Shown: positions 7,973 through 54,023 of the stretch, piece by piece
Numbering within the stretch: the first letter of the stretch is position 1
Layout of the letters: each line of letters begins with the position of its first letter
Virus record (IMG/VR): IMGVR_UViG_3300049788_000021
Coordinates: 1 to 54,023 of that record
DNA from: a virus
Lineage: Duplodnaviria > Caudoviricetes
Direction: 5' to 3' (one strand)
DNA: 54,023 nt
The notes under the pieces: generated by a model
The model's database searches: none
Seen by the model: the letters and a program-made list of their open reading frames with translations, nothing else
What the model was told of the DNA's origin: nothing
Program-made: the position numbers and the translations under genes

Positions 7973-8352
7973 GTACGACGATCACCGTCCCCTTGGTCCC
8001 TCCGAGTCCCAACGTTTTACGCCGCCAGTACCGCCACCCGCAAGCCTACAAACGGCTTCGGGAAACCTGGGAGCACTCCCTCGCCTATGCCGTTCCCTCC
8101 GCGACCGTGCGCTGCCATCTCTTGCGGCAAGCCAGCAAGACTCGCGTGCGCGTAAAGATCACCGTCTTCCACTCCTCGCAGTACGACCCTGACAACCTTA
8201 CTGCGTGCTGTAAGCCAGTCTTAGACGCATTACGAAACATAGGCTACATCCATGACGATGCCGAAGAATGGCTGGAACTTGCCGCACCGCAACAACGCAG
8301 CGGGAAGAACACGTTGGAACGCAAGACGGTGGTCGAAATCGAGGGAGTGTGA
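7969..8352 (+). CDS. rusA: RusA-like Holliday junction resolvase
   Basis: PPSPN N-terminus; DPDNL...KPVLDAL..IGYIHDD. Confidence 0.8.
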   Translation: MSTTITVPLVPPSPNVLRRQYRHPQAYKRLRETWEHSLAYAVPSATVRCHLLRQASKTRVRVKITVFHSSQYDPDNLTACCKPVLDALRNIGYIHDDAEEWLELAAPQQRSGKNTLERKTVVEIEGV

Positions 8353-8355
8353 GGC

Positions 8356-8640
8356 ATGTGGATAAATCCCAACACCAACAAAGGCTGGACGGACGGAGAA
8401 GAAGCTATCTTCATGGAGATACAATCAGTAAGCAGACTTACGCGCATACAGTCGATCCACTTGTGGAAGCGTTTTTGGAAAAACTCCAAGAGGGCTGTGG
8501 TGGTTGCCAAGCGAGATTATCCTGCGTTTACGTCAAAGCAGAGAGCCAATTTCCAAAAGCAAGCGGAACGACTTCAGGGAGCACGTGACAAATCAATGCC
8601 ACATCAGCGCATTTGGCACAGCAGCGCACAATGCGGGTAA
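8356..8640 (+). CDS. Hypothetical basic protein
   Basis: ORF ending the rightward early operon. Confidence 0.55.
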   Translation: MWINPNTNKGWTDGEEAIFMEIQSVSRLTRIQSIHLWKRFWKNSKRAVVVAKRDYPAFTSKQRANFQKQAERLQGARDKSMPHQRIWHSSAQCG

Positions 8641-8714
8641 GGTCGAGGATTTCCTCATGCCATCAGTTTTGACCCCGTTGTAGGCAGAAACTTTGCCGAC
8701 CCCAGTATGGGGGG

Positions 8715-8795
8715 CTACTTGCGGAAATGTTCTTCCCATTCGCCCCACACCCAGGCTATCAGAATGCTCAACACCAATATCCCGAGGATCGTCAC
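8715..8795 (-). CDS. 26-aa membrane peptide (not in the ORF track)
   Basis: GAGGT SD then GTG; VTILGILVLSILIAWVWGEWEEHFRK; resembles 13535..13630. Confidence 0.55.
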   Translation of the reverse strand: MTILGILVLSILIAWVWGEWEEHFRK

Positions 8796-8894
8796 GTGGG
8801 CTACCTCGCCAACGGTCCACCGACTGTCGCGGTAAGACCGTTGACGCCATAGCCAACGACGTAGGCTACAGCTACCCCCTCGCGGGAGTGGACA

Positions 8895-9302
8895 CTAGCG
8901 CGAGAGGGAACTTGTCCGGACGCGTACCTCCCGGTACTGCGCAATGGTCTTTCGCGCTTCCTGGCACGCCTCGCGGATCATATCGTGGAAATAGCTCCCG
9001 CACCTGCCGCGCTCCCCGCGTGCCTCATACTCGCGGTTCTGCTGGCCACACTCGCGGTGGTCCATGAAATCCTCCAGCGATTTGTAGACGCAGTTGCCCA
9101 AATACGCCTCGCCTACTTTGTCGCCATGGTAATACACGGCAACATGCGCGACGAAGGCAATCAGTTCCCCATCGTCCAAACCCTTGGCCACCTCCCCGCT
9201 GTCGTCCCAGGAAATATCCAGGTCTTCTTCGGGGAAGGCCTGACAGATCACCGAAAAGTTTTTGGTTCTAAACTCGCGCATCAATCCAAGTCTCCGGTAC
9301 AT
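8895..9302 (-). CDS. Hypothetical protein
   Basis: ATG at 9302 downstream of the GGAGTGGAC motif. Confidence 0.75.
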   Translation of the reverse strand: MYRRLGLMREFRTKNFSVICQAFPEEDLDISWDDSGEVAKGLDDGELIAFVAHVAVYYHGDKVGEAYLGNCVYKSLEDFMDHRECGQQNREYEARGERGRCGSYFHDMIREACQEARKTIAQYREVRVRTSSLSR

Positions 9303-9391
9303 GGTTGTCCACTCCATTTACTAAGATTTAACTACGGGAACGAATGCTTCCCTTGCTCCGCGTCTGTCACCCACGGAGGATAGCGAAACAC

Positions 9392-9646
9392 TCACCTGGA
9401 CCTACTGCTGAAGTGCGGGCTGTGCAGCGCTAAGCCCAACACATACTCGACACAGTAGGCCAAGTACATGGGATCATTCTCCTGCCCCAGTGCCTTGTTG
9501 ATGCGTTCGAGGTTGGGTTTGATTATCAAGTCGGCAACACGTTGCGCGTAAGTTTTTCCGTCCGTGGTCCACTCCCCACGCCATATCTGCGCTGCCAGCA
9601 TGATTTCTTCTTCGCTCAAAAAGTCGTGCAAGCGGATGAGCTTCAT
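9392..9646 (-). CDS. Hypothetical protein
   Basis: Coupled to the upstream gene (ATGA). Confidence 0.7.
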   Translation of the reverse strand: MKLIRLHDFLSEEEIMLAAQIWRGEWTTDGKTYAQRVADLIIKPNLERINKALGQENDPMYLAYCVEYVLGLALHSPHFSSRSR

Positions 9647-10083
9647 GCGCGTATCCAGTACTCTACCCCGTCAAAGTCCGCGCTCATATAATCGGCCTTG
9701 AGCGCATCCGCCGCCGCTTCCCAGTCGATATGATCGTTTGGCCAGGAAGCGTTTTTGTCGATTGCGCCAATGTCTTCGGCAAGTTGCTGGGCGTACTCCT
9801 CGAAATAAGAGTCCCGAATGAGGGTTTCCCCGTGGTTCCAATCCGGCGAACCAGAGGCTTCTTCTTCGAGCTTTTCGAGCGCTTTCAGTTCGTTGTACTC
9901 GTCCTCGCCAAAGTCCACGGAAGAGGCAAAGGTCCTGCCGTCCGCAGCGGTGAGCATATCCTGATCGTCCGGATTTTCCGCCGCATCGTCGCGGTAGTCC
10001 TGCAGTTCGCGTATGCGGCGGATCACGTCTCGACTGTCGATTATGTCTTGACCGTTGTGTACTTCGTTTCTTGCTCTAATCAT
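9643..10083 (-). CDS. Highly acidic ArdA-like antirestriction/DNA-mimic candidate
   Basis: Very D/E-rich; C-terminal HIDWEAAADALKADYMSADFDGVEYWIR resembles the ArdA C-terminal motif. Confidence 0.55.
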   Translation of the reverse strand: MIRARNEVHNGQDIIDSRDVIRRIRELQDYRDDAAENPDDQDMLTAADGRTFASSVDFGEDEYNELKALEKLEEEASGSPDWNHGETLIRDSYFEEYAQQLAEDIGAIDKNASWPNDHIDWEAAADALKADYMSADFDGVEYWIRA

Positions 10084-10246
10084 GGTGTGTCCACTCCAGT
10101 TTAGTTTTTAGATTTTTGAGAGGGAGGTTGACGTACTCCCTCTCCGTGCTTGCAGTTGATGAGGCTGCTACGCTGGCCACATGGCGGGAGAAAACTCCCC
10201 GTTGCGGGGAAAGAGGTTTTCGTAACCATGCAGCAAGACCGTTGCC

Positions 10247-10441
10247 TTATTGGTTATCATCCTCCAGGCGTTCCAACCGTTTTTCATGCGCATGCACAAT
10301 CTTGGCCAAGTCGGCAACCAGTTGCGCCAGACTGGCCACCGCATTGGTTAATTGGCGCACCTCTTCAGTTAGCTTGGCTTCGTTTTGCAGCAACATCTCT
10401 AGGCCGCGCTCGAAACGATCCAATCGTTCTGTGTCGCTCAA
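10247..10441 (-). CDS. Small coiled-coil protein
   Basis: GGAGGA SD then TTG; heptad pattern ERLDRFERGLEML...HEKRLERLE. Confidence 0.6.
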   Translation of the reverse strand: MSDTERLDRFERGLEMLLQNEAKLTEEVRQLTNAVASLAQLVADLAKIVHAHEKRLERLEDDNQ

Positions 10442-10662
10442 TCTATCCTCCCTGGTCCTTTGGCGATTTCGGACCACGCTTCGTTGTGGTACTGGAAACA
10501 GGTGCCGCACTTTTTGCAGCCCGCCGTGTACAGTCCTGCTGCGCCACTGACAAAAAGAAATTGACGCCAATTGTGGTTGCCGCAAGGACAGAGTAGTTTG
10601 CCCTCCGCAATCTTGCGGCAGTCGTCGAAAAACTTCTGAGTTTTCTGGTCCATGGTGCTCAC
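10438..10662 (-). CDS. Small zinc-ribbon protein
   Basis: CPCG...CKKCG. Confidence 0.6.
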   Translation of the reverse strand: MSTMDQKTQKFFDDCRKIAEGKLLCPCGNHNWRQFLFVSGAAGLYTAGCKKCGTCFQYHNEAWSEIAKGPGRID

Positions 10663-10904
10663 TCGTTTTCGAGATGCTCCCAGAGCGCTTGCTCGCGCTT
10701 AGTACGCTCGCGCATCTCTTCTGCGGTGTACACTCCGCGTGTGTCGTACCACTCGCGCAGCGCTCCCCGGAAATACTCCACCATATCGGCGTCGATTAGT
10801 TCCTGCGAAGTGTCTTGAAAATGGATGACCACCTTTTCGCTACCACCCCGCAAACCTGCGGCAGGTTCCGCGTGCCATAGCACTTCAAAGATTAGCTTTG
10901 CCAT
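10659..10904 (-). CDS. Hypothetical protein
   Basis: ATG follows the GGAGTGGAC motif. Confidence 0.7.
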   Translation of the reverse strand: MAKLIFEVLWHAEPAAGLRGGSEKVVIHFQDTSQELIDADMVEYFRGALREWYDTRGVYTAEEMRERTKREQALWEHLENE

Positions 10905-11116
10905 TGGTCCACTCCTCGGCTAAAAATTTTTCCTTTCTCAGTATGCCCAACTTAACACGAAATTTTTTTGAAACGCCAGTATCAACATTAGCGTACGTAA
11001 CATATTGAGCGCTGGCCTGTTGCTCCCTGGCATGCTCCCCGGCGAGGTGCTCTTCCCTGGCCAGGGACGGACGCGGGAGAGGGATTGTCTCCCCTCTCGC
11101 GTCTCGCGTTTCCCGT

Positions 11117-11344
11117 TTACTTGTCTATCACCTCCAGAGACGCCGTGGATACCATGCAAATGAACCGTCCGGTGGACGGATCACCCACATAGCATTGACC
11201 CATGGTATTCTCGCGAGGTGCTCCAGGTAGACGGATCACTCGCACGGTTTGTCCCTTTTGCAAGGTATTCCCCTGGCACGGATGGAACACGTCCCAACCT
11301 ACTGGGGAATACTTATACAAACCATTTAGACGCACTTTTCTCAT
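11117..11344 (-). CDS. Hypothetical protein (possibly small beta-barrel)
   Basis: ATG at 11344 follows the CACAAGGGAGAAAA motif. Confidence 0.7.
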   Translation of the reverse strand: MRKVRLNGLYKYSPVGWDVFHPCQGNTLQKGQTVRVIRLPGAPRENTMGQCYVGDPSTGRFICMVSTASLEVIDK

Positions 11345-11454
11345 CGTTTGAGGTTTTCTCCCTTGTGATTTTATTTCGAGGTTACATCTCACCTCTGACG
11401 CGTCCCTCACGGATCACGCGAGGGACGCCTAGGCTGTGAGAGGTTTACCCTCCG

Positions 11455-11787
11455 CTAATCCCACACGGGACGAGCAGCCCTTGCGGTATAGTCGAACTCC
11501 CTGGCCACGTGCACCGTGTAGGTAGTATTGGCTTCGAGGTGTACCGTGCCATGTTCTTCGTGCACGATAGAAACGCCACGTTCCGATACTTTAACGATGG
11601 CATCCCCCCATGACGGACGGAACACCTCCGCGTCGGTTAACACCTCCACACGGTGGTGATGTCCGGTGGCCTCTCCCTCACGGATCACTCCGTCTGCTAC
11701 TTTGGCCCTTTGCAGGTAGTCCGTGTTGGTATCTATGGAATACTGTGGGATAAAAAGTAAATCACCTTGCCTAATTAAATTGGCCAT
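11455..11787 (-). CDS. His-rich RQGD/GExTGH protein (usual partner of DUF6745 proteins)
   Basis: RQGDLLF...EGEATGHHH...HEEH...REFD...PVWD. Confidence 0.7.
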   Translation of the reverse strand: MANLIRQGDLLFIPQYSIDTNTDYLQRAKVADGVIREGEATGHHHRVEVLTDAEVFRPSWGDAIVKVSERGVSIVHEEHGTVHLEANTTYTVHVAREFDYTARAARPVWD

Positions 11788-11883
11788 ACGATTGTCCACT
11801 CCTGATTTAGATTTACCTACTCGACACGTATTAGGTGTCTATTGCGCATCCAATCCGAAACGCACGGGATGCGCGATAGCTGC

Positions 11884-12849
11884 CTAAGTTTCTTGCGTCA
11901 ACTGGCCTAGATAGTCGGTAGTGTTGAACATCCAATCCAGGGCGGCAGACACGCTAGTGATGTTCGGGGGAACCATATTGAGATAAACTGCGCCAGTACT
12001 TGGACACGTCATCTTTAATCCCACTAAGGACTCACCATTCCACCTATCCGCACGGATCACTAAGCGGAGTAGAGCGTAGTCCTTGAGCGTGGCTACCGTT
12101 TCGGGATTGGCGTCTAGAAAAAACCGTTCCATCCCGTAGCACATCATTTTCGCCGTACGTATGGTGGTATTGTTTTCCGCAAGAATGCTTTGCACCGATA
12201 GATCACGGTACTTGTGCTCTTTTCGGATCACCTCGCATCCACACGTGTACTTGCCAATGGCCAAACGCCTAGCACGTCGAAAAGCACGGGAAAGTGTCTC
12301 GCAGTGGCGTCTCTCCCATCTTCCCTTGTTCGCATATTGGCATCCCGTGCGGATCACCTGGATGCCGCGTGATTTTCTCAACCAATAATTAGCGCGATTA
12401 ATCGGGCGCTTCTCCGCGTTCCGTTCTTCGCGTCTCGCGTCTCGATACTCTTGGACGTTTCCCCCAACTATGCTTCCGTCTGGATTAATGGTGGCGTCCG
12501 GATCACAGGTTACCTCCGGACCTTTCGGGTTGCGCCAGGAGCCACAGGAAAGCACGGTCATTCCGTCCGAGTTTCGCCTACTGCTCATAGGTTCCCCATG
12601 CACGGAATAATCGGAGGGTAGGTATTGGTTCATGCGATCATAGGTGGTCCGCGTGTGATAACCTCCGGTATTTACCTCTATGCTACCGTCTGAAAAGAAC
12701 GTGAGAATGTCCGTTTCATGTAGCAATACCGCGTAGGCATCCGGATCACCTGTGCCTTGTGTGCGTCTCTTTAGGTAGGTATTGTTGGCCAATCGTTTCG
12801 ACTGGGAACACCTCCCCACGAGAAGTTTGTTTGCCTCACTGTAGTTCAT
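11884..12849 (-). CDS. Protein with a C-terminal DUF6745-like domain
   Basis: LKMTCPSTGAVYLNMVPP...AALDWMF; N-terminal NTGGYHTRTTYDRMN domain. Confidence 0.65.
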   Translation of the reverse strand: MNYSEANKLLVGRCSQSKRLANNTYLKRRTQGTGDPDAYAVLLHETDILTFFSDGSIEVNTGGYHTRTTYDRMNQYLPSDYSVHGEPMSSRRNSDGMTVLSCGSWRNPKGPEVTCDPDATINPDGSIVGGNVQEYRDARREERNAEKRPINRANYWLRKSRGIQVIRTGCQYANKGRWERRHCETLSRAFRRARRLAIGKYTCGCEVIRKEHKYRDLSVQSILAENNTTIRTAKMMCYGMERFFLDANPETVATLKDYALLRLVIRADRWNGESLVGLKMTCPSTGAVYLNMVPPNITSVSAALDWMFNTTDYLGQLTQET

Positions 12850-12875
12850 CGTTTGTTTTTCTCCCTTGTGTTGGC

Positions 12876-12950
12876 GTCTCTCATCAGTGGCGAGTATCAC
12901 TCACCATACGTCCGGATCACGCGAGAACACCTCTCCGGACGTTTCGAGAC
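12876..12950 (-). ncRNA. Type II hammerhead ribozyme HH1
   Basis: Minus strand: GUCUC-GAAA-CGUCCGGA(loop)UCCGGACG-UA-UGGUGAGU GAU ACUCGCCA-CUGAUGA-GAGAC; complete core, three stems, GUA cleavage triplet. Confidence 0.93.
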
Positions 12951-13186
12951 TAGCGAGTTTCCCAGTACGCCAAATTGGCGAGCACGACGGATACGGTGTC
13001 TCCCTGCAGGGTACGGAGCACTAGCGTCCCGTTCTCGGGAACGAGCACCTCTGTTACGTCTGAAACTACACGGTCATTTTCCGCATTAACGAAATGAAGT
13101 ACGACGCGTACGGTTTTTCCGTCGTACTGCAGGCAATCGTGACACTCGCATTTTCCATACAGTGACTGTTTGTAATTGTGTTCCAT
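12950..13186 (-). CDS. 78-aa hypothetical protein bracketed by the two hammerheads
   Basis: AGGGAG SD; MEHNYKQSLYGKCECHDC...YWETR; the TAG stop overlaps the first base of HH1. Confidence 0.75.
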   Translation of the reverse strand: MEHNYKQSLYGKCECHDCLQYDGKTVRVVLHFVNAENDRVVSDVTEVLVPENGTLVLRTLQGDTVSVVLANLAYWETR

Positions 13187-13205
13187 TTTTTCTCCCTTGT
13201 GTTTT

Positions 13206-13264
13206 CCTCTCATCAGAGCACGTACCACGTGCTTACGTCCGGAGCACCTCCGGACGTTTCGAGG
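13206..13264 (-). ncRNA. Type II hammerhead ribozyme HH2
   Basis: Minus strand: CCUC-GAAA-CGUCCGGAG GUG CUCCGGACG-UA-AGCACGU GGU ACGUGCU-CUGAUGA-GAGG; complete core, GUA triplet. Confidence 0.93.
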
Positions 13265-13265
13265 T

Positions 13266-13538
13266 TTAATCGTACATGCCGCGTACTTCGTTAGCCCATC
13301 CAATTGGATCATTCTCACGCGTGCAACTGTCGCAAACATAATGGTGGCGTCCCTTGTACGCGGAAATAGGTGCGCCGCATTGTGGACAGGTGAACCGTGA
13401 TCCACTACGCGGAGGTGTGGGAACACCGGAGAAACATTCCTTACACTTTCCCTCGTGTTCCCTGGCAAAATGTTTGGTGGTAATCCCCTGGCAAGAGATG
13501 CAATTGGTTTGATATTTCGAGAACTGAGAACGGATCAC
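13266..13538 (-). CDS. Double zinc-finger protein
   Basis: GGAGG SD then GTG; CISC, CKEC, CPQC and CDSC. Confidence 0.65.
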   Translation of the reverse strand: MIRSQFSKYQTNCISCQGITTKHFAREHEGKCKECFSGVPTPPRSGSRFTCPQCGAPISAYKGRHHYVCDSCTRENDPIGWANEVRGMYD

Positions 13539-13630
13539 TCCGCACCTCCGTCCCGATAGTGTTCTTCCCATAGACCAATTACATACGGTAGGTAGAACAA
13601 GAGAAAAACGAAACCAAGTAATTGGATCAC
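13535..13630 (-). CDS. 31-aa membrane peptide (not in the ORF track)
   Basis: VIQLLGFVFLLFYLPYVIGLWEEHYRDGGAE; GTGA overlaps with both neighbouring genes; GGAGG SD. Confidence 0.65.
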   Translation of the reverse strand: MIQLLGFVFLLFYLPYVIGLWEEHYRDGGAE

Positions 13631-13977
13631 TGCGCACCTCCGTCGTTCGAGGTGAGCATGAGCATGCTAGCGAAATAGTTCTCTTTGTCCGGATCACGTC
13701 CCTCTGCGATAGCCTTACACTTGCGCTTAGCTATCTCATACCGTATTGAGGTGTAATTGCAGAGACACTCTCCGGAGTTTAACGCCGTAAGTTTGTAGAG
13801 AAACAAGGTAACGATGGGATGAGTGTTAACGTAGTCCGTCCCGCGTCCGCGTTCCCTGGCATGCTCCCAAACTACAAGCAATACCTGCTCTGCTAGCGTG
13901 TGGATCACTCCGCTAGCATTGCACGCGTTCTGTACGTCTAACGCGAGTTTTGCCGCTAACTGCAAAGTAATTGTCAT
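13627..13977 (-). CDS. Hypothetical protein, first gene of the leftward operon
   Basis: AGGGAG SD; LALDVQNACNASGV...NTHPIVTLF. Confidence 0.75.
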   Translation of the reverse strand: MTITLQLAAKLALDVQNACNASGVIHTLAEQVLLVVWEHARERGRGTDYVNTHPIVTLFLYKLTALNSGECLCNYTSIRYEIAKRKCKAIAEGRDPDKENYFASMLMLTSNDGGAQ

Positions 13978-14071
13978 TCGTTTGTTTTCTCCCTGGTAAA
14001 GTGCGCCTCGCGTCCCGGTCGAGTTATCACCTCAACCCTGAAAATGAGACGCCTAGATATAGCTGTATAGC

Positions 14072-14100
14072 AGTGTAACACAGAACGAAAATATTTTCAA
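14072..14100 (-). promoter_or_regulatory. Sigma70-type promoter of the leftward early operon
   Basis: TTGAAA-17 bp-TACACT with an extended -10 TG and A/T-rich upstream sequence. Confidence 0.7.
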
Positions 14101-14538
14101 CACCTCGGAAAATGACAATACAGCAAAGAGAAAAACAAGAGGAAAAAAAGATAAGATAAGCTTAATATGTATTGCCAGTAAACACGCGAGAACGTTTTAC
14201 GAGGGAAAATGCGTTTCGCGTCCCTGGTATTTGCGTCTCTCACCTCGCGTCCCTGGCATCTCTCGAACGAGCACGGGACGGATCACCTCCGGGCGCATCC
14301 GTGTTGGTATCATTAGTGACTACAGGGACGGACGCCACCGGACGCAAGTGTAACTCGCGAATGTACTTACTGATAACGTTAATCGGTTTGTAAAACCGAC
14401 GTGCTGCCTATACGTACGGGTAATTGTATACGTACTGGTACGGGAACCCCATCCCATCAGAGCAAGGCCCGCCCCGTTTAGATCGGGCCTGGGCCGCTCG
14501 CTATTGCTAGGCCTTCATCCTCACTTCTTCCCTTTTTT

Positions 14539-14572
14539 TGCCCAACTTGTCTTGTAATACCATGCCCAACTT
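14539..14572 (-). promoter_or_regulatory. Two direct copies of the AAGTTGGGCA motif, 24 bp apart
   Basis: TGCCCAACTT at 14539 and 14563; the same core recurs near 3514, 10944, 21051, 26036 and 44162. Confidence 0.55.
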
Positions 14573-14728
14573 GTTAGAGTTTGGTTTTGCTGTTAGGGTA
14601 TTTTGCTTAATACGTCGTCATGGTGAAGTAGTGGAGGGAGGAGGGCTGCAGGGGGTTTTTGCTTTTTTGCTGTTGAAGCATTTTTTCCTTTTTAGTTCTT
14701 CTGCCTTTTTTTTCTCTGGTGAGGTGGT

Positions 14729-15034
14729 TTGGGGGTGGTGAAGATGGGCTGGTGGGCCAGCGAAGCGGCGGATGAGTTTTGGCGCAAGTGGCACAAGCCG
14801 GGGAGTGCTGAGGCGCGGACGGAGGAGATGCGCAGAGCGTTACGCGAGAGTGTGTCGTGTTTAGAGGAGTGTGCCACGTTGTTAGCGGAGATGGTGATGC
14901 GCTTTGGGGATCACGTGATATTGGATGATACGTTGGAGGGGGCCACGGAGTGGAAGTTCAGCGAAGGGGTGAAGATGTATTTTGCGAAGGCCAAGGAGAT
15001 GAGGGAGAAGTGGGAGTTGCCGGAGGATGAATGA
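14729..15034 (+). CDS. Hypothetical protein
   Basis: First ORF of the rightward accessory region. Confidence 0.55.
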   Translation: MGVVKMGWWASEAADEFWRKWHKPGSAEARTEEMRRALRESVSCLEECATLLAEMVMRFGDHVILDDTLEGATEWKFSEGVKMYFAKAKEMREKWELPEDE

Positions 15035-51262: not shown

Positions 51263-51865
51263 ATGAAATATCTCTGCGTCATAGAAGTACTCAATCAAGT
51301 CGATGGTCCACCGTCAGGAGGACCTCCAGGTATCTGGGGTCCACCTGGACCGTGGCCCACACCACCAATCTACTTGCCACCGGGAGGAGGAGGAGGAACA
51401 CCTCCGGGGATTTGGGGTCCTCCAGGTCCATGGCCAACTCCACCGATCTATCTGCCTCCAGGTCCATGGCCAACTCCACCGATCTATCTGCCACCGGGAG
51501 GAGGAACACCTCCAGGGGCACCGGGAGTTCCAACGTTCCCGATCTGGGGTCCTCCAGGTTTCAATCCACCAGGACCAGGGTATCCACCAGGGATTGGTGG
51601 TGGCCCAGTTATCCCGCCAGCGCCCGACGCGCCTCCAGGCACGCCAGCACTGCCGATCTGGCCTCCTCCGGGGATCAGTCTTCCGCCAGTTCCGGGTTAT
51701 CCGCCCGTGGCGCAACATCCCATCGTGTTACCGGGACCGCCCACGGCACCACCACCGTCAGAGGGCATCAAGCCCCCTCCTCCGGGTGGTGGGTGGGGCT
51801 ATCATCCAGATTTTGGCTGGGGCTATTTTCCAGGTGGTGGCGGAAAACCAGTTCCTCCAGGCTAA
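51263..51865 (+). CDS. Proline/glycine-rich repeat protein
   Basis: AAGGAG SD; PPGIWGPPGPWPTPPIYLPPG repeats. Confidence 0.75.
   Translation: MKYLCVIEVLNQVDGPPSGGPPGIWGPPGPWPTPPIYLPPGGGGGTPPGIWGPPGPWPTPPIYLPPGPWPTPPIYLPPGGGTPPGAPGVPTFPIWGPPGFNPPGPGYPPGIGGGPVIPPAPDAPPGTPALPIWPPPGISLPPVPGYPPVAQHPIVLPGPPTAPPPSEGIKPPPPGGGWGYHPDFGWGYFPGGGGKPVPPG
51421..51492. repeat. Perfect 36-bp tandem duplication
   Basis: TCCAGGTCCATGGCCAACTCCACCGATCTATCTGCC twice. Confidence 0.9.
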
Positions 51866-51892
51866 AATAAACAAGAAGCCATCCGTGGATTT

Positions 51893-52441
51893 TCAAGCAC
51901 GACGTTTCAGACCACGGATGGCTTCTTCTACTGGCAGCGTGGACATGTCGCGCAAAATGTTTTCGGGAACGTTGTAGGAGTAGCCATAATTTTGGTTTAA
52001 TCGACCCCAAAACTTTTCCTGTCTTGCTTCGTAATCACGACACCACCCTGCAATCCAAAAGCGGGGCGCTTCCCATGCCAGCACTAAAACATAGATGCCC
52101 ATGTGATCGTCTTTTTGCACCATTAGGTGCGCGGGGTCGGCATCGGTACGAGTACAGCGACGATGAAATGGTTCCACGTCCGGTCCAGCGTTTCCTTTAC
52201 TGTTCCAATGCAGAAGATGACTCCATTGCAGATACTCCTTTTCGCTCCAGCGATGAAGCACGTACTCTCCGTGACATGACCAATAGTTATCGTAAAAGGC
52301 GCGATGTTCCGGCATGCCTCGTCGGTCGAAGTGTCCCCTGTAAATGTCTGGAGTAATGCGCTCGACAGACAGGTAGCCGCAGTTCAACATTTCCTGCTTG
52401 TCGAGGTCCCATGGGATTTGTATTGGCTTTGGGCGCGGCAC
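51893..52441 (-). CDS. Hypothetical protein near attP
   Basis: ORF with AGGGGAG upstream. Confidence 0.65.
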   Translation of the reverse strand: MPRPKPIQIPWDLDKQEMLNCGYLSVERITPDIYRGHFDRRGMPEHRAFYDNYWSCHGEYVLHRWSEKEYLQWSHLLHWNSKGNAGPDVEPFHRRCTRTDADPAHLMVQKDDHMGIYVLVLAWEAPRFWIAGWCRDYEARQEKFWGRLNQNYGYSYNVPENILRDMSTLPVEEAIRGLKRRA

Positions 52442-52594
52442 GGAATGCGCGGTTCTTTTCTCCCCTCGCGCATCGCGAAAAACACGGCAGCAGGGAGCCG
52501 CCCTCCCCGCTACCGTGTCACAAGGAAACTGCTTCAGACCTCATACCGGAACACCGGGAACAAGAAAAGGGGATTGTTTCCGCATTACTTTCGC

Positions 52595-52836
52595 CTGTAG
52601 TCGCGCAAACCCGAAGTACGCCACTGTAGCCGTGAATGTCACCAAAACCTACGCAAACGTAGATGAACCTACGTCAACCTAAATCAACAACTCCTTTGCT
52701 ATCAACGTAACTTCTGTCTGTTCAGAAGGTTAGGAACGTTGAAATCGTTCTCATAACCCGAAGGACGTTGGTTCAAATCCAACCCCCGCAACAACTTACA
52801 GACACAGCCAATCTACTGTAGTCGAAAATGTCACCA
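52595..52836. promoter_or_regulatory. attP region with arm-type direct repeats
   Basis: ACTGTAGCCGTGAATGTCACCA (52623) and ACTGTAGTCGAAAATGTCACCA (52815) match at 19/22; CTGTAGTCG at 52595; these flank the tRNA core. Confidence 0.7.
52750..52793 (+). other. attP core: 3' half of an initiator tRNA-Met(CAT)
   Basis: CTCATAACCCGAAGGACGTTGGTTCAAATCCAACCCCCGCAAC gives the anticodon loop, T-arm and acceptor 3' strand; no 5' half. Confidence 0.85.
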
Positions 52837-52844
52837 CAATAAGA

Positions 52845-52880
52845 AGGGCCACCTTTTCGGAGGTGGCCCTGGTTGTTTTT
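52845..52880 (+). terminator. Rho-independent terminator downstream of the tRNA fragment
   Basis: AGGGCCACCTT-TTCG-GAGGTGGCCCT followed by GGTTGTTTTT. Confidence 0.75.
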
Positions 52881-52881
52881 G

Positions 52882-52920
52882 AGCGAGGGGTCGTGGGTTC
52901 AACTCCCACCACCCCCACTA
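52882..52920 (+). other. Second tRNA 3' fragment (identity unresolved)
   Basis: AGCGAG-GGGTC-GTGGG-TTCAACT-CCCAC-CACCCCC-A-CTA has correct T-arm and acceptor spacing. Confidence 0.65.
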
Positions 52921-52949
52921 AAAGGCGAGTGCTCTACCCTGTTGTTGAG

Positions 52950-54023
52950 CTACACCCCCCTCATGGCTTTGATCTTCTGTTGTTCGCTCTTGCGGCGCGT
53001 AGCAATCTTCACCATAGCCTCGCGCAGGTCGGCGTCGTCGGTAATGTCGTAGCGCCACAGCATGCTGTCGGTTTCGTGTCCGGTGATTTTCATAGCCACT
53101 TTAGTGGGCACCCCGGCGCGGATCAGGTTGCGAGCAGCACTGCGCCGCAGATCGTGGAAGATGCGTCCATGGTATTGGCAAGCCCTGCCACAGTGTCGTT
53201 TCTCCGCACCCTGGTGCCCGCAGACGCGGCAAATCATCTTGCCCAAGCCGATGGCTATACAAGCAGTGTGCCATGCCTTGCGGAACTCGCAGATAGGATC
53301 ACCGTCGCGGTGGAACACCCACTGCGAGAGCACCACACCTTTGTCGGTTTTGATGGAACGTGCCTTCCTGCGGCGTTCCATGATGGCAGCTAATTCCGGG
53401 TGAATGTCAAAAGGGATGTGGTAGGGACGGTCGTTCTTGCTGTTCTTGCTGCGCAGCCGGATGGTGTCCTCTTCCACATCGTTCCAAGTAAGCGTACTGA
53501 TGGCATTCAAGCGCCAGCCGATGATGTAGCCGAAATGCACGAAGTCGCGCAGATCATCATCCGGCAACCACTTCAGCAAGGTATCAATTTCCAGGTCGTT
53601 GAAGAAACCCTCGCGCACCGTCGCAGCTTTCAGGTCAGGCATTACTGGTGCAGGGACTTTGGCAAGCTCGAACGCCTGGATGAGCACCTGTAAGCGATTG
53701 CGGATGGTGCTGTCGGCGTAACCGTCCTGGCGCATATCCTTGCGATAGTCCTTGAGCGTTTGGTCGGTGATGACGTTGGACATTCTGGTGCCAAAGGCTT
53801 CTTTCACCAGGGCGAAGAGGCTCAAGTTTTCCGTGGTGTCGATGCCGCGCTCCTGGTAGTCCTCTTGCAGGTTGTCAAGCAACTGCCCAACGGTTTGCGG
53901 TTCCGCTTGGGGCTGTTCTTTCGGATCGACAATGCCCTTTTCGGCGCGAAGATATTTGGCGTGCTCCCCGGCCAACATTTGCATTGCCGCTTTTTCACTT
54001 TTCTTGGTGCCGTCGTTCTCAAT
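52950..54023 (-). CDS. int: Tyrosine integrase, C-terminal part
   Basis: Catalytic motifs GWR, SKN, FHDLRRS, TGH and RY; adjacent to a tRNA-derived att core. Confidence 0.95.
   Translation of the reverse strand: MENDGTKKSEKAAMQMLAGEHAKYLRAEKGIVDPKEQPQAEPQTVGQLLDNLQEDYQERGIDTTENLSLFALVKEAFGTRMSNVITDQTLKDYRKDMRQDGYADSTIRNRLQVLIQAFELAKVPAPVMPDLKAATVREGFFNDLEIDTLLKWLPDDDLRDFVHFGYIIGWRLNAISTLTWNDVEEDTIRLRSKNSKNDRPYHIPFDIHPELAAIMERRRKARSIKTDKGVVLSQWVFHRDGDPICEFRKAWHTACIAIGLGKMICRVCGHQGAEKRHCGRACQYHGRIFHDLRRSAARNLIRAGVPTKVAMKITGHETDSMLWRYDITDDADLREAMVKIATRRKSEQQKIKAMRGV
53897..54023. repeat. Terminal direct repeat, copy 2 (circular assembly overlap)
   Basis: Identical to 1-127. Confidence 0.95.

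Follow-up and report, generated by a model that had tools for sequence, protein, structure and literature searches.

Hairpin-bearing spacers share a phage early operon with hammerhead ribozymes and may serve as intercistronic mRNA modules

Phage T7 carries RNase III processing sites (R0.3 to R1.3) between its early genes, and bacterial operons contain intercistronic stabiliser hairpins, such as those of puf and the repetitive extragenic palindromic (REP) hairpins of malEFG. In prophages, according to the excerpted part of Perreault et al. 2011 (PMC3088659), hammerhead ribozymes flank single genes or short gene blocks, ardA included, and it is suggested there that they process long transcripts into gene-length mRNAs. 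Here we consider the early operon of a tailed-phage genome (Duplodnaviria; Caudoviricetes), the IMG/VR virus record IMGVR_UViG_3300049788_000021, whose full 54,023 bases are the window of this analysis. Two of the operon's eight long stop-to-ribosome-binding-site (RBS) spacers hold type II hammerheads, HH1 and HH2; the other six, spacers A to F, hold hairpins. We propose, with a probability of roughly 55%, that A–F are protein-dependent modules for the processing, stability or insulation of intercistronic mRNA.

As read from open reading frames and sequence, the early operon occupies the minus strand from about 14.07 to 8.7 kb and comprises 14 genes (g1 to g14). Its 13 gene junctions consist of 8 long spacers (79-212 nucleotides, nt) and 5 junctions that overlap or are 5 nt long. 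An earlier note on this DNA had described every other spacer of the operon as structured RNA in the same slot as the two hammerheads; the wording holds for the 8 long spacers among 13 junctions, and the shared stop-to-RBS position is confirmed.

13206..13264, minus strand: HH1, type II hammerhead in the g3/g4 spacer, with a complete CUGAUGA / GAAA / GUA core and three stems.
12876..12950, minus strand: HH2, type II hammerhead in the g4/g5 spacer, with a complete type II core.
11788..11883, minus strand: spacer A (g5/g6), with hairpin 11879-11839, small hairpin 11838-11824, an A/U-rich linker and the leader AAATCT..GGAGTGGACA before ATG 11787.
11345..11454, minus strand: spacer B (g6/g7), with a rod-like hairpin of 26 pairs (11452-11378) and the leader CACAAGGGAGAAAA, then ATG 11344.
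10905..11116, minus strand: spacer C (g7/g8), with two hairpins in its 5' half and an A/U-rich 3' half that ends in GGAGTGGAC before ATG 10904.
10084..10246, minus strand: spacer D (g10/g11, the latter ardA-like), with three hairpins, an A-rich linker and a leader before ATG 10083.
9303..9391, minus strand: spacer E (g12/g13), with one irregular hairpin of 7+7 base pairs (bp), a linker and a leader.
8796..8910, minus strand: spacer F (g13/g14), with three tandem hairpins before GTG 8795.

Folds and sequence together give the six spacers a common layout of stop codon, one or more hairpins, an unpaired A/U-rich linker and a conserved leader. The first helix sets in 0-13 nt past the stop codon, except in F, where it starts 11 nt before it. 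Tandem or nested hairpins are predicted for A, C, D and F, a rod for B and a single irregular hairpin for E, with no multi-helix junction in any. The main hairpin of A has a partly paired loop and two helices, of 8 bp (11874-11867/11851-11844) and 4 bp (11879-11876/11842-11839); the 13-bp stem reported there in the earlier note is thus present but broken by one C.A mismatch into helices of 4 and 8 bp, and the small hairpin reported beside it (11838-11824) pairs ACAC with GUGU. Also as reported, B contains a perfectly paired 12-bp stem (11428-11417/11411-11400), which forms the top of the rod with GTGATCC in its loop; helices of 6 and 4 bp extend the rod, whose arms are 28 nt each and 75% complementary. 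Where several hairpins had been described in C, two are found in the 5' half, with cores at 11103-11070 (including GAGAGGGG/UCCCUCUC) and 11066-11037, and the 3' half is unstructured. In D we recover both the nested multi-stem (10+6+6 bp, 10234-10176) and the 9-bp GAGAGGGAG/CUCCCUCUC hairpin (10144-10118), along with a 4-bp hairpin at 10168-10152. The three-way junction suggested for E does not appear in its predicted fold, which is one hairpin with 9391-9385/9350-9344 around 9378-9372/9362-9356. Finally, F has the three tandem hairpins and the GCGA loop ascribed to it, the first hairpin having either this 6-bp GCGA-loop form or a 10-bp stem (8908-8899/8884-8875) that spans the g13 stop codon; the second and third have 9 bp (8872-8846) and 11+4 bp (8845-8808).

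Compared with 200 dinucleotide shuffles per spacer, folding is beyond chance in B (z -6.06) and D (z -4.47), where 0/200 shuffles fold as well, in F (z -2.92, 1/200) and in the 5' half of C (z -2.66, 3/200); the 3' half of C gives z +0.72, and HH1 and HH2 give z -3.77 and -2.46 with as many shuffles. A scan of the operon in 368 sliding 90-nt windows places the most stable ones in B, F and the 5' half of C. Across the whole genome, on the minus strand and corrected for GC content, the 30 most stable of 3596 windows include some in B and F and none in D or C. Strong hairpins are enriched in the spacers: of 14 with at least 8 contiguous pairs between 8500 and 14100, nine lie wholly in spacers and one more lies across the g13 stop codon, and spacers make up 1034 of these 5601 nt (18%). 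The arm words GAGAGGG and CCCTCTC are common to hairpins of C and D, and the first stem of F has CCCTCTC; the two words occur nowhere else in the genome, and their loops measure 6, 9 and 14 nt.

No hammerhead core is present in A–F, and no other known ribozyme was detected in A, B, D or E. We built two covariance models, R1 from HH1 and HH2 and R2 from four hammerheads, and ran them over the whole window with filters off; neither finds a hammerhead in A–F on the transcribed strand. HH1 scores 74.7 and 69.8 bits in these models, R2 at E<0.5 returns HH1 and HH2 only, and R1 finds no third hammerhead in the genome. Hammerhead pattern scans likewise return these two, to which CTGATGAG is confined on the minus strand, and the combination of CUGAUGA, GAAA, an NUH triplet and three stems occurs in none of A–F. 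The best non-hammerhead match of R1, at 12.9 bits, is a partial copy of the hammerhead stem III hairpin within g5 (12496-12521, minus strand; GUCCGGAG...GUGAUCCGGAC), which has a core-like GAAAG before it and neither stem I nor CUGAUGA downstream. B was also considered as a permuted or degenerate hammerhead, which inspection by eye and both models ruled out.

Rfam gives the whole window 0 matches at gathering score, missing the real hammerheads too, and scans of 9 kb and 551 nt at E<=10 miss both as well; absence of a match in such large scans therefore means little. It takes a scan of 81 nt alone to bring out a match of HH1 to RF02276 (23.1 bits, E 0.0039), which is still under the gathering score of 37. 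Scans near that size (89-167 nt each) were made for A, B, D and E and yield no ribozyme family up to E 10; they return hairpins resembling microRNA precursors, the only matches for B, and other chance-level matches. By these scans, A, B, D and E are not twister, twister-sister, pistol, hatchet or hepatitis delta virus (HDV)-like ribozymes; in the excerpted part of a review (PMC6154101), pistol, twister and hatchet are multi-stem folds with pseudoknots or conserved junction nucleotides. C and F were covered by the 9-kb and gathering-score scans, both of which had missed HH1 and HH2 and are thus insensitive; their folds are plain tandem hairpins. The earlier statement that no hammerhead, twister, pistol or HDV core is present is thus borne out by Rfam for A, B, D and E and, as regards hammerheads, by R1 and R2 for all six; the Infernal/Rfam check reaches C and F only through large scans blind to HH1 and HH2.

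Other known elements describe the spacers better. The length of an RNase III site, about two helical turns or roughly 20 bp or more, is attained in B (26 pairs) and D (22 pairs, 10234-10176); the third hairpin of F, with 15-16 pairs, is borderline, and the hairpins of A, C and E are shorter. In position the spacer hairpins correspond to stabiliser hairpins, standing right after a stop codon within an operon and having no terminator tail, with an effect on half-life that is predicted. Intrinsic (Rho-independent) termination does not fit them overall: in a scan of 8300-14800, terminator-like sites number 8 where 6.7 are expected, five of the six spacers have A-rich or mixed sequence instead of a U-tract after their hairpins, and no U-tract stands behind any hairpin at a spacer's 3' end. 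On the transcribed strand the spacers contain no promoter-like site, and ARAGORN found no tRNA or transfer-messenger RNA.

Relatives show that the slots can change their occupants. A g6 query in IMG/VR yields 15 loci, one of which, on a 45-kb record (L184), keeps the g5-g6 pair in order, with g5 42% identical over 332 residues and g6 59% identical. Two hammerhead-like elements, missed by routine Rfam-family scans, flank the pair.

L184:1995-2053: type II hammerhead-like element just upstream of the g5 homologue, corresponding to the HH2 slot; 33.5 bits.
L184:3315-3371: canonical type II hammerhead that begins at the stop codon of the g6 homologue, corresponding to the B slot; 26.6 bits, E 1.5e-5.

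In the first of these a U-A pair replaces the usual A15.1-U16.1 and stem II has 3 bp only; its activity appears doubtful. An alignment of the four hammerheads, which was fitted to the model and so favours the structure, has 94% of its cells paired, and 14 of 22 pairs change on both sides, a figure that 0/500 shuffles reach. In L184 the A slot (2914-2991) is filled by a pair of tandem 8-bp hairpins with an A/U-rich linker (z -1.05); it has no sequence similarity to A. With a hammerhead in the place of B and tandem hairpins in that of A, L184 shows that hairpin elements and hammerheads do take each other's place at one and the same junction. Of the 15 loci, 13 allow the slot behind the g6 homologue to be evaluated, 2 ending too early: the occupant is a hammerhead in L184 alone, while in 3 loci (L185, L186 and L194) a hairpin or multi-stem element comes right after the stop; 5 have, by our reading, no spacer, and the other 4 have unclassified sequence. 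The element of L186 is a hairpin with an A-rich linker (z -2.66), and that of L185, a complete 79-kb phage record, is a 140-nt multi-stem element (L185:3343-3486; z -1.71) in which an outer stem of about 12 bp encloses two hairpins. No other hammerhead occurs in the 14 g6 loci besides L184. The slot is clearly a place where this loose phage group puts an interchangeable RNA element, be it a hammerhead, a long hairpin, a short hairpin or nothing. A 13-nt word, AACTAAACTGGAG, is common to two leaders, the one that follows the first L184 hammerhead and the one behind hairpin D; this sharing is suggestive only, since a 13-nt match between two 6-kb regions arises by chance about half the time.

There is no close relative in the phage, IMG/VR, JGI metagenome or GTDB collections searched. 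Blastn of the operon against 50,697 phage records gives one unrelated 146-nt match, and a g5 query in IMG/VR finds no relative. The ardA-like gene finds 5 loci in IMG/VR (at most 56% identical, without hammerheads or the motifs) and 39 in JGI metagenomes (at most 57% identical over full length); 45 ardA-like loci, totalling 300 kb, hold no type II hammerhead, and the nearest has tight junctions. The terminase has one 66% match in IMG/VR, on a 10.7-kb contig, and neither the terminase nor the integrase finds a relative among GTDB genomes. Three DNA patterns made from the hammerheads and leaders returned 39, 0 and 0 stretches, all 39 of them chance matches, and a leader pattern search returned 99 single matches, also by chance. 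Searches of the collections by Rfam family are uninformative, as they missed all four known hammerheads and gave no twister-P1, and the R1 version missed the L184 pair.

The leaders that close the spacers fall into two classes, class 1 being CA(C/A)AGGGAGAAAA and class 2 GGAGTGGAC(A), usually with AAATCT upstream. Class 1 (CACAAGGGAGAAAA, or CCAGGGAGAAAA for g1) precedes g1, g4, g5 and g7, standing in the primary 5' untranslated region (UTR), both hammerhead spacers and B; class 2 precedes g6, g8, g11 and g13 as well as the integrase gene at 211.

13984-13997, 13187-13200, 12856-12869 and 11353-11366, minus strand: class-1 leaders, as sequence words.
11793-11802, 10907-10915, 10088-10097, 9306-9315 and 216-224: class-2 leaders, as sequence words.

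GGAGTGGAC has six minus-strand copies, five right before starts (in A, C, D, E and at the integrase gene), and one antisense copy. The integrase leader, located on the opposite side of the genome, is preceded by a consensus promoter (TTGACA-17-TATAGT). In F, the loop (8898-8885) of the 10-bp stem (8875-8908) is antisense to the GGAGTGGACAC leader: it reads GUGUCCACUCC, the exact antisense of the leader GGAGUGGACAC before the ardA-like gene, is antisense to 9-10 nt of the other class-2 leaders too, and is the genome's only antisense copy. The 5' UTR of g1 (13978-14060, minus strand) has a 7-bp hairpin, with a 3' half like stem I of HH2, followed by a class-1 leader, so the primary transcript would begin much like a hammerhead-cleaved message.

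The reading we favour builds on what is observed: the structures, their placement, their enrichment in spacers, the lack of known ribozyme cores as far as the scans reach, and the interchange of hairpin and hammerhead at one junction in a relative. A–F would be modules of one early polycistronic mRNA (minus strand, about 14.07 to 8.7 kb), separating blocks of translationally coupled genes. Their hairpins would block 3' exonucleases and so protect the mRNA segment upstream, the shorter ones serving as exonuclease barriers. RNase III would find suitable targets in long, irregular helices such as those of B (26 pairs) and D (22 pairs), perhaps also of F, and these spacers are candidate substrates of the enzyme. 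The open linker would leave the next RBS accessible. The outcome would be the same as with hammerhead self-cleavage, namely discrete message segments with hairpin-capped ends. RNA cutting at A–F, and the enzyme responsible, are what we infer. This reading fits the T7 pattern of RNase III sites between early genes and also the proposal of Perreault et al. 2011 (PMC3088659), the operon here likewise having an ardA-like gene. The earlier note's view that the hairpins are functional equivalents of the hammerheads gains from the exchange of slots and from the shape of the B, D and F helices, which are like RNase III or stabiliser hairpins; nothing points to the unrecognised self-cleaving classes among its options.

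Several results weigh against these modules. A (z -1.95, 9/200) and E (z -1.25, 22/200) do not fold beyond their shuffles, and both lie within the range of 214 operon coding windows; the earlier description of the spacers as structured RNAs, right in that all named stems are present, thus holds, in the sense of folding better than chance, in B, D, F and the 5' half of C, and not in A and E. The minus strand does not outfold the plus strand beyond the coding background (mean difference -1.67, sd 5.27, in 109 coding windows; +2.3 to -10.3 in the spacers), and without strand asymmetry the palindromes could act as DNA. In A, the mismatch that is C.A on the transcribed strand would be G.U on the opposite strand. 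The inner hairpin of D (10211-10195, with 4 U's) resembles a weak intrinsic terminator, the only such site in a spacer on the minus strand. Reuse of arm words in C, D and F could mean spread of a repeat and not selection at each site. Covariation lends A–F no support, since the collections searched hold no alignable homologous spacer. Moreover, a start codon follows the g6 homologue within about 15 nt in at least five relatives (L187, L188, L189, L191 and L192), and such modules must therefore be dispensable.

Some of these points would also be explained if the hairpins were mostly neutral, that is, spreading palindromic repeats or decayed hammerheads tolerated in the gaps with no role in processing. 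The arm words common to C, D and F, the stem III copy in the g5 coding sequence (12521-12496), the hammerhead-unit-like pieces of B without a catalytic core, the relatives that have no spacer at these junctions and the lack of strand asymmetry are all consistent with this notion. We nevertheless hold it to be unlikely, as all six spacers follow one layout, in which the hairpin always stands beside the stop and never over the RBS, strong hairpins are enriched in spacers, and the L184 A slot keeps tandem hairpins though the flanking proteins are 42-59% identical and the spacer sequence is unrelated. Likewise unlikely are sites that act on transcription or bind proteins, whether partial terminators or attenuators timing delayed-early genes, antitermination sites or operators of phage regulators. 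The inner hairpin of D, with its flanking A- and U-tracts, scores as terminator-like, the stems are near-perfect Watson-Crick palindromes with few G.U pairs, and the related words GGGACGCGA and CCAGGGA turn up repeatedly near the early promoter and also in spacer C. However, five of the six spacers have no U-tract behind their hairpins and none has a promoter-like site on the transcribed strand, and arm words that stay the same with loops of 6, 9 and 14 nt fit a folded strand better than a dimeric DNA-binding protein with fixed spacing.

Alternatively, the hairpins and leaders may be repressor operators for translational control, the F loop 8898-8885 (GUGUCCACUCC) pairing with GGAGUGGACAC-type leaders and shutting them off. 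The two leader classes are sharply defined, and GGAGTGGAC stands before five starts with one antisense copy in the loop of the F 10-bp stem; yet such control seems improbable, because the predicted folds leave the RBS leaders unpaired, no candidate RNA-binding repressor was identified among the operon proteins, and pairing of 10-11 nt would have to form across 0.4-3 kb. We regard it as very improbable that at least one spacer, likeliest B, D or E, cleaves itself, either as a member of an unrecognised RNA class or as a hammerhead that has diverged strongly, and does the job of HH1 and HH2. Twister-sister, pistol and hatchet were themselves discovered via searches near known ribozymes. The slot is common with two hammerheads, L184 has a hammerhead in the B slot, and B shares the short words TAAACCTC, AACCTCGAAA and CTCGCGTGATCCG with the hammerhead units. 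Standard Rfam scans missed real hammerheads, so that absent matches are weak evidence, and pistol ribozymes are frequent near phage genes in the excerpted review (PMC6154101). Against this stand the folds, which are tandem or nested hairpins or one rod (B) with no multi-helix junction; the absence of any R1 or R2 match in A–F on the transcribed strand with filters off; the scans able to detect HH1, which, up to E 10, list no ribozyme family for any of A, B, D and E; and the lack of homologues found that could reveal conserved unpaired nucleotides. Were it true, B, with a hammerhead in its slot in a relative and hammerhead-like words but no core, or the multi-stem D would be a new self-processing RNA replacing a hammerhead, and the phage operon would hold a ribozyme class missing from Rfam.

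The remaining features of the operon are its putative promoter and its genes.

14072..14100, minus strand: candidate sigma-70-type early promoter (TTGAAA, 17 nt, TACACT, with TG), recognised by consensus match alone, which would drive the operon.
13977-13627, minus strand: g1, early operon gene.
13630-13535, minus strand: g2, early operon gene, 31 amino acids (aa).
13538-13266, minus strand: g3, early operon gene.
13186-12950, minus strand: g4, early operon gene.
12849-11884, minus strand: g5, early operon gene.
11787-11455, minus strand: g6, early operon gene.
11344-11117, minus strand: g7, early operon gene.
10904-10659, minus strand: g8, early operon gene.
10653-10438, minus strand: g9, early operon gene.
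10441-10247, minus strand: g10, early operon gene.
10083-9643, minus strand: g11, ardA-like, matching phrog_25535 at 3.5e-33 and phrog_2059 'anti-restriction protein' at 5e-6.
9646-9392, minus strand: g12, early operon gene.
9302-8895, minus strand: g13, early operon gene.
About 8715-8795, minus strand: g14, start GTG 8795, about 26 aa.

For g13, ATG 9302 is the more likely start, as the alternative at 9317 falls within the conserved leader word. The small hydrophobic peptides of g2 (31 aa) and g14 (about 26 aa) have the common ending W-E-E-H-[YF]-R, and the two genes (13535-13630 and about 8715-8795) are likely paralogues; their likeness speaks for g14 being a genuine gene and for F lying truly between genes.

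Two sets of repeated words mark the early region. The 8-mer GTGATCCG has 15 genome copies against 1.7 expected, a number reached by 0/100 shuffles; 14 of them belong to the minus strand and are confined to 4.3 kb of the early region (10019-14286), and the 7-mer GTGATCC has 17 of its 21 minus-strand copies within 10020-14914. Copies of these words fall in all three codon phases, reading V-I-R or x-D-P or, twice, forming a GTGA stop/start overlap (g1/g2 and g2/g3), which points to a constraint at the nucleotide level. Further GTGATCC-type copies lie in the loops of B and HH2 stem III. Often GTGATCCG is extended 5' by GGAG, GAG or AG, and with this extension it is complementary to the 16S rRNA 3' tail that bears the anti-Shine-Dalgarno sequence. 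Ribosome capture or pausing, a strand-specific protein site on DNA and a Chi-like signal are possible roles; the motif is absent from the relative L184. The second set, GGGACGCGA and (G)CCAGGGA, flanks the early promoter (13995-14016 and 14203-14257) and recurs in spacer C (11030-11110) and in early genes, with 3 of 4 copies of GGGACGCGA within 250 nt of the promoter; these words may be operators or Shine-Dalgarno-like.

The record has the IMG/VR end class of direct terminal repeats, here 127 nt long, and a CheckV completeness estimate of 100%. Its genes for an integrase, a terminase and a RecT/YqaJ recombination pair mark it as a temperate phage. The only sequencing run with the sequence is a soil metagenome, which may be its source, and no RNA dataset is listed with it. 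Near the 3' end of the integrase gene, on both strands of 51286-52965, lie several of the genome's most stable 90-nt windows, which could mark attP or a regulatory region.

The role of hammerheads in phage genomes is still uncertain, and here hammerheads and plain hairpins hold equivalent slots in one operon. The swap between two related phages supports a view of hammerheads as one of several interchangeable ways to cut and insulate a long early message. With one operon, eight junctions and two chemistries, the locus is a compact test system whose value lies in the comparison and also in the strand-specific 8-mer GTGATCCG that its early genes carry.

How do A–F relate to described elements? 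Like the T7 sites R0.3-R1.3, they are irregular hairpins in the intercistronic gaps of an early polycistronic mRNA, B and D having predicted helices with internal loops, and a cut here would, as in T7, leave a hairpin on the 3' end of the upstream segment. Unlike the T7 sites, the hairpins of A, E and C are under two helical turns, and the operon also has hammerheads, which T7 is not known to have. With the prophage hammerheads in the excerpted account of Perreault et al. 2011, A–F share the stop-to-RBS slot and the setting, an ardA-like gene in an early or anti-restriction operon; HH1, HH2 and the two L184 hammerheads belong with the clustered prophage type II hammerheads, and A–F have no core or three-stem junction. 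A stable hairpin just 3' of the stop and without a U-tract recalls the hairpins of puf and malEFG REP and by analogy could protect the upstream segment, but in contrast to those hairpins A–F are accompanied by conserved leaders and alternate with ribozymes. Pistol and similar ribozymes are likewise small structured RNAs, common near phage genes and other ribozymes; A, B, D and E are set apart from them by having neither a match to an Rfam model nor, in the predicted folds, the required multi-stem or pseudoknot architecture. Intercistronic hairpins in a phage early operon are thus a known kind of element and the spacers themselves are probably ordinary; what is modestly new is the mix of hammerheads and hairpins, together with their swap at one junction.

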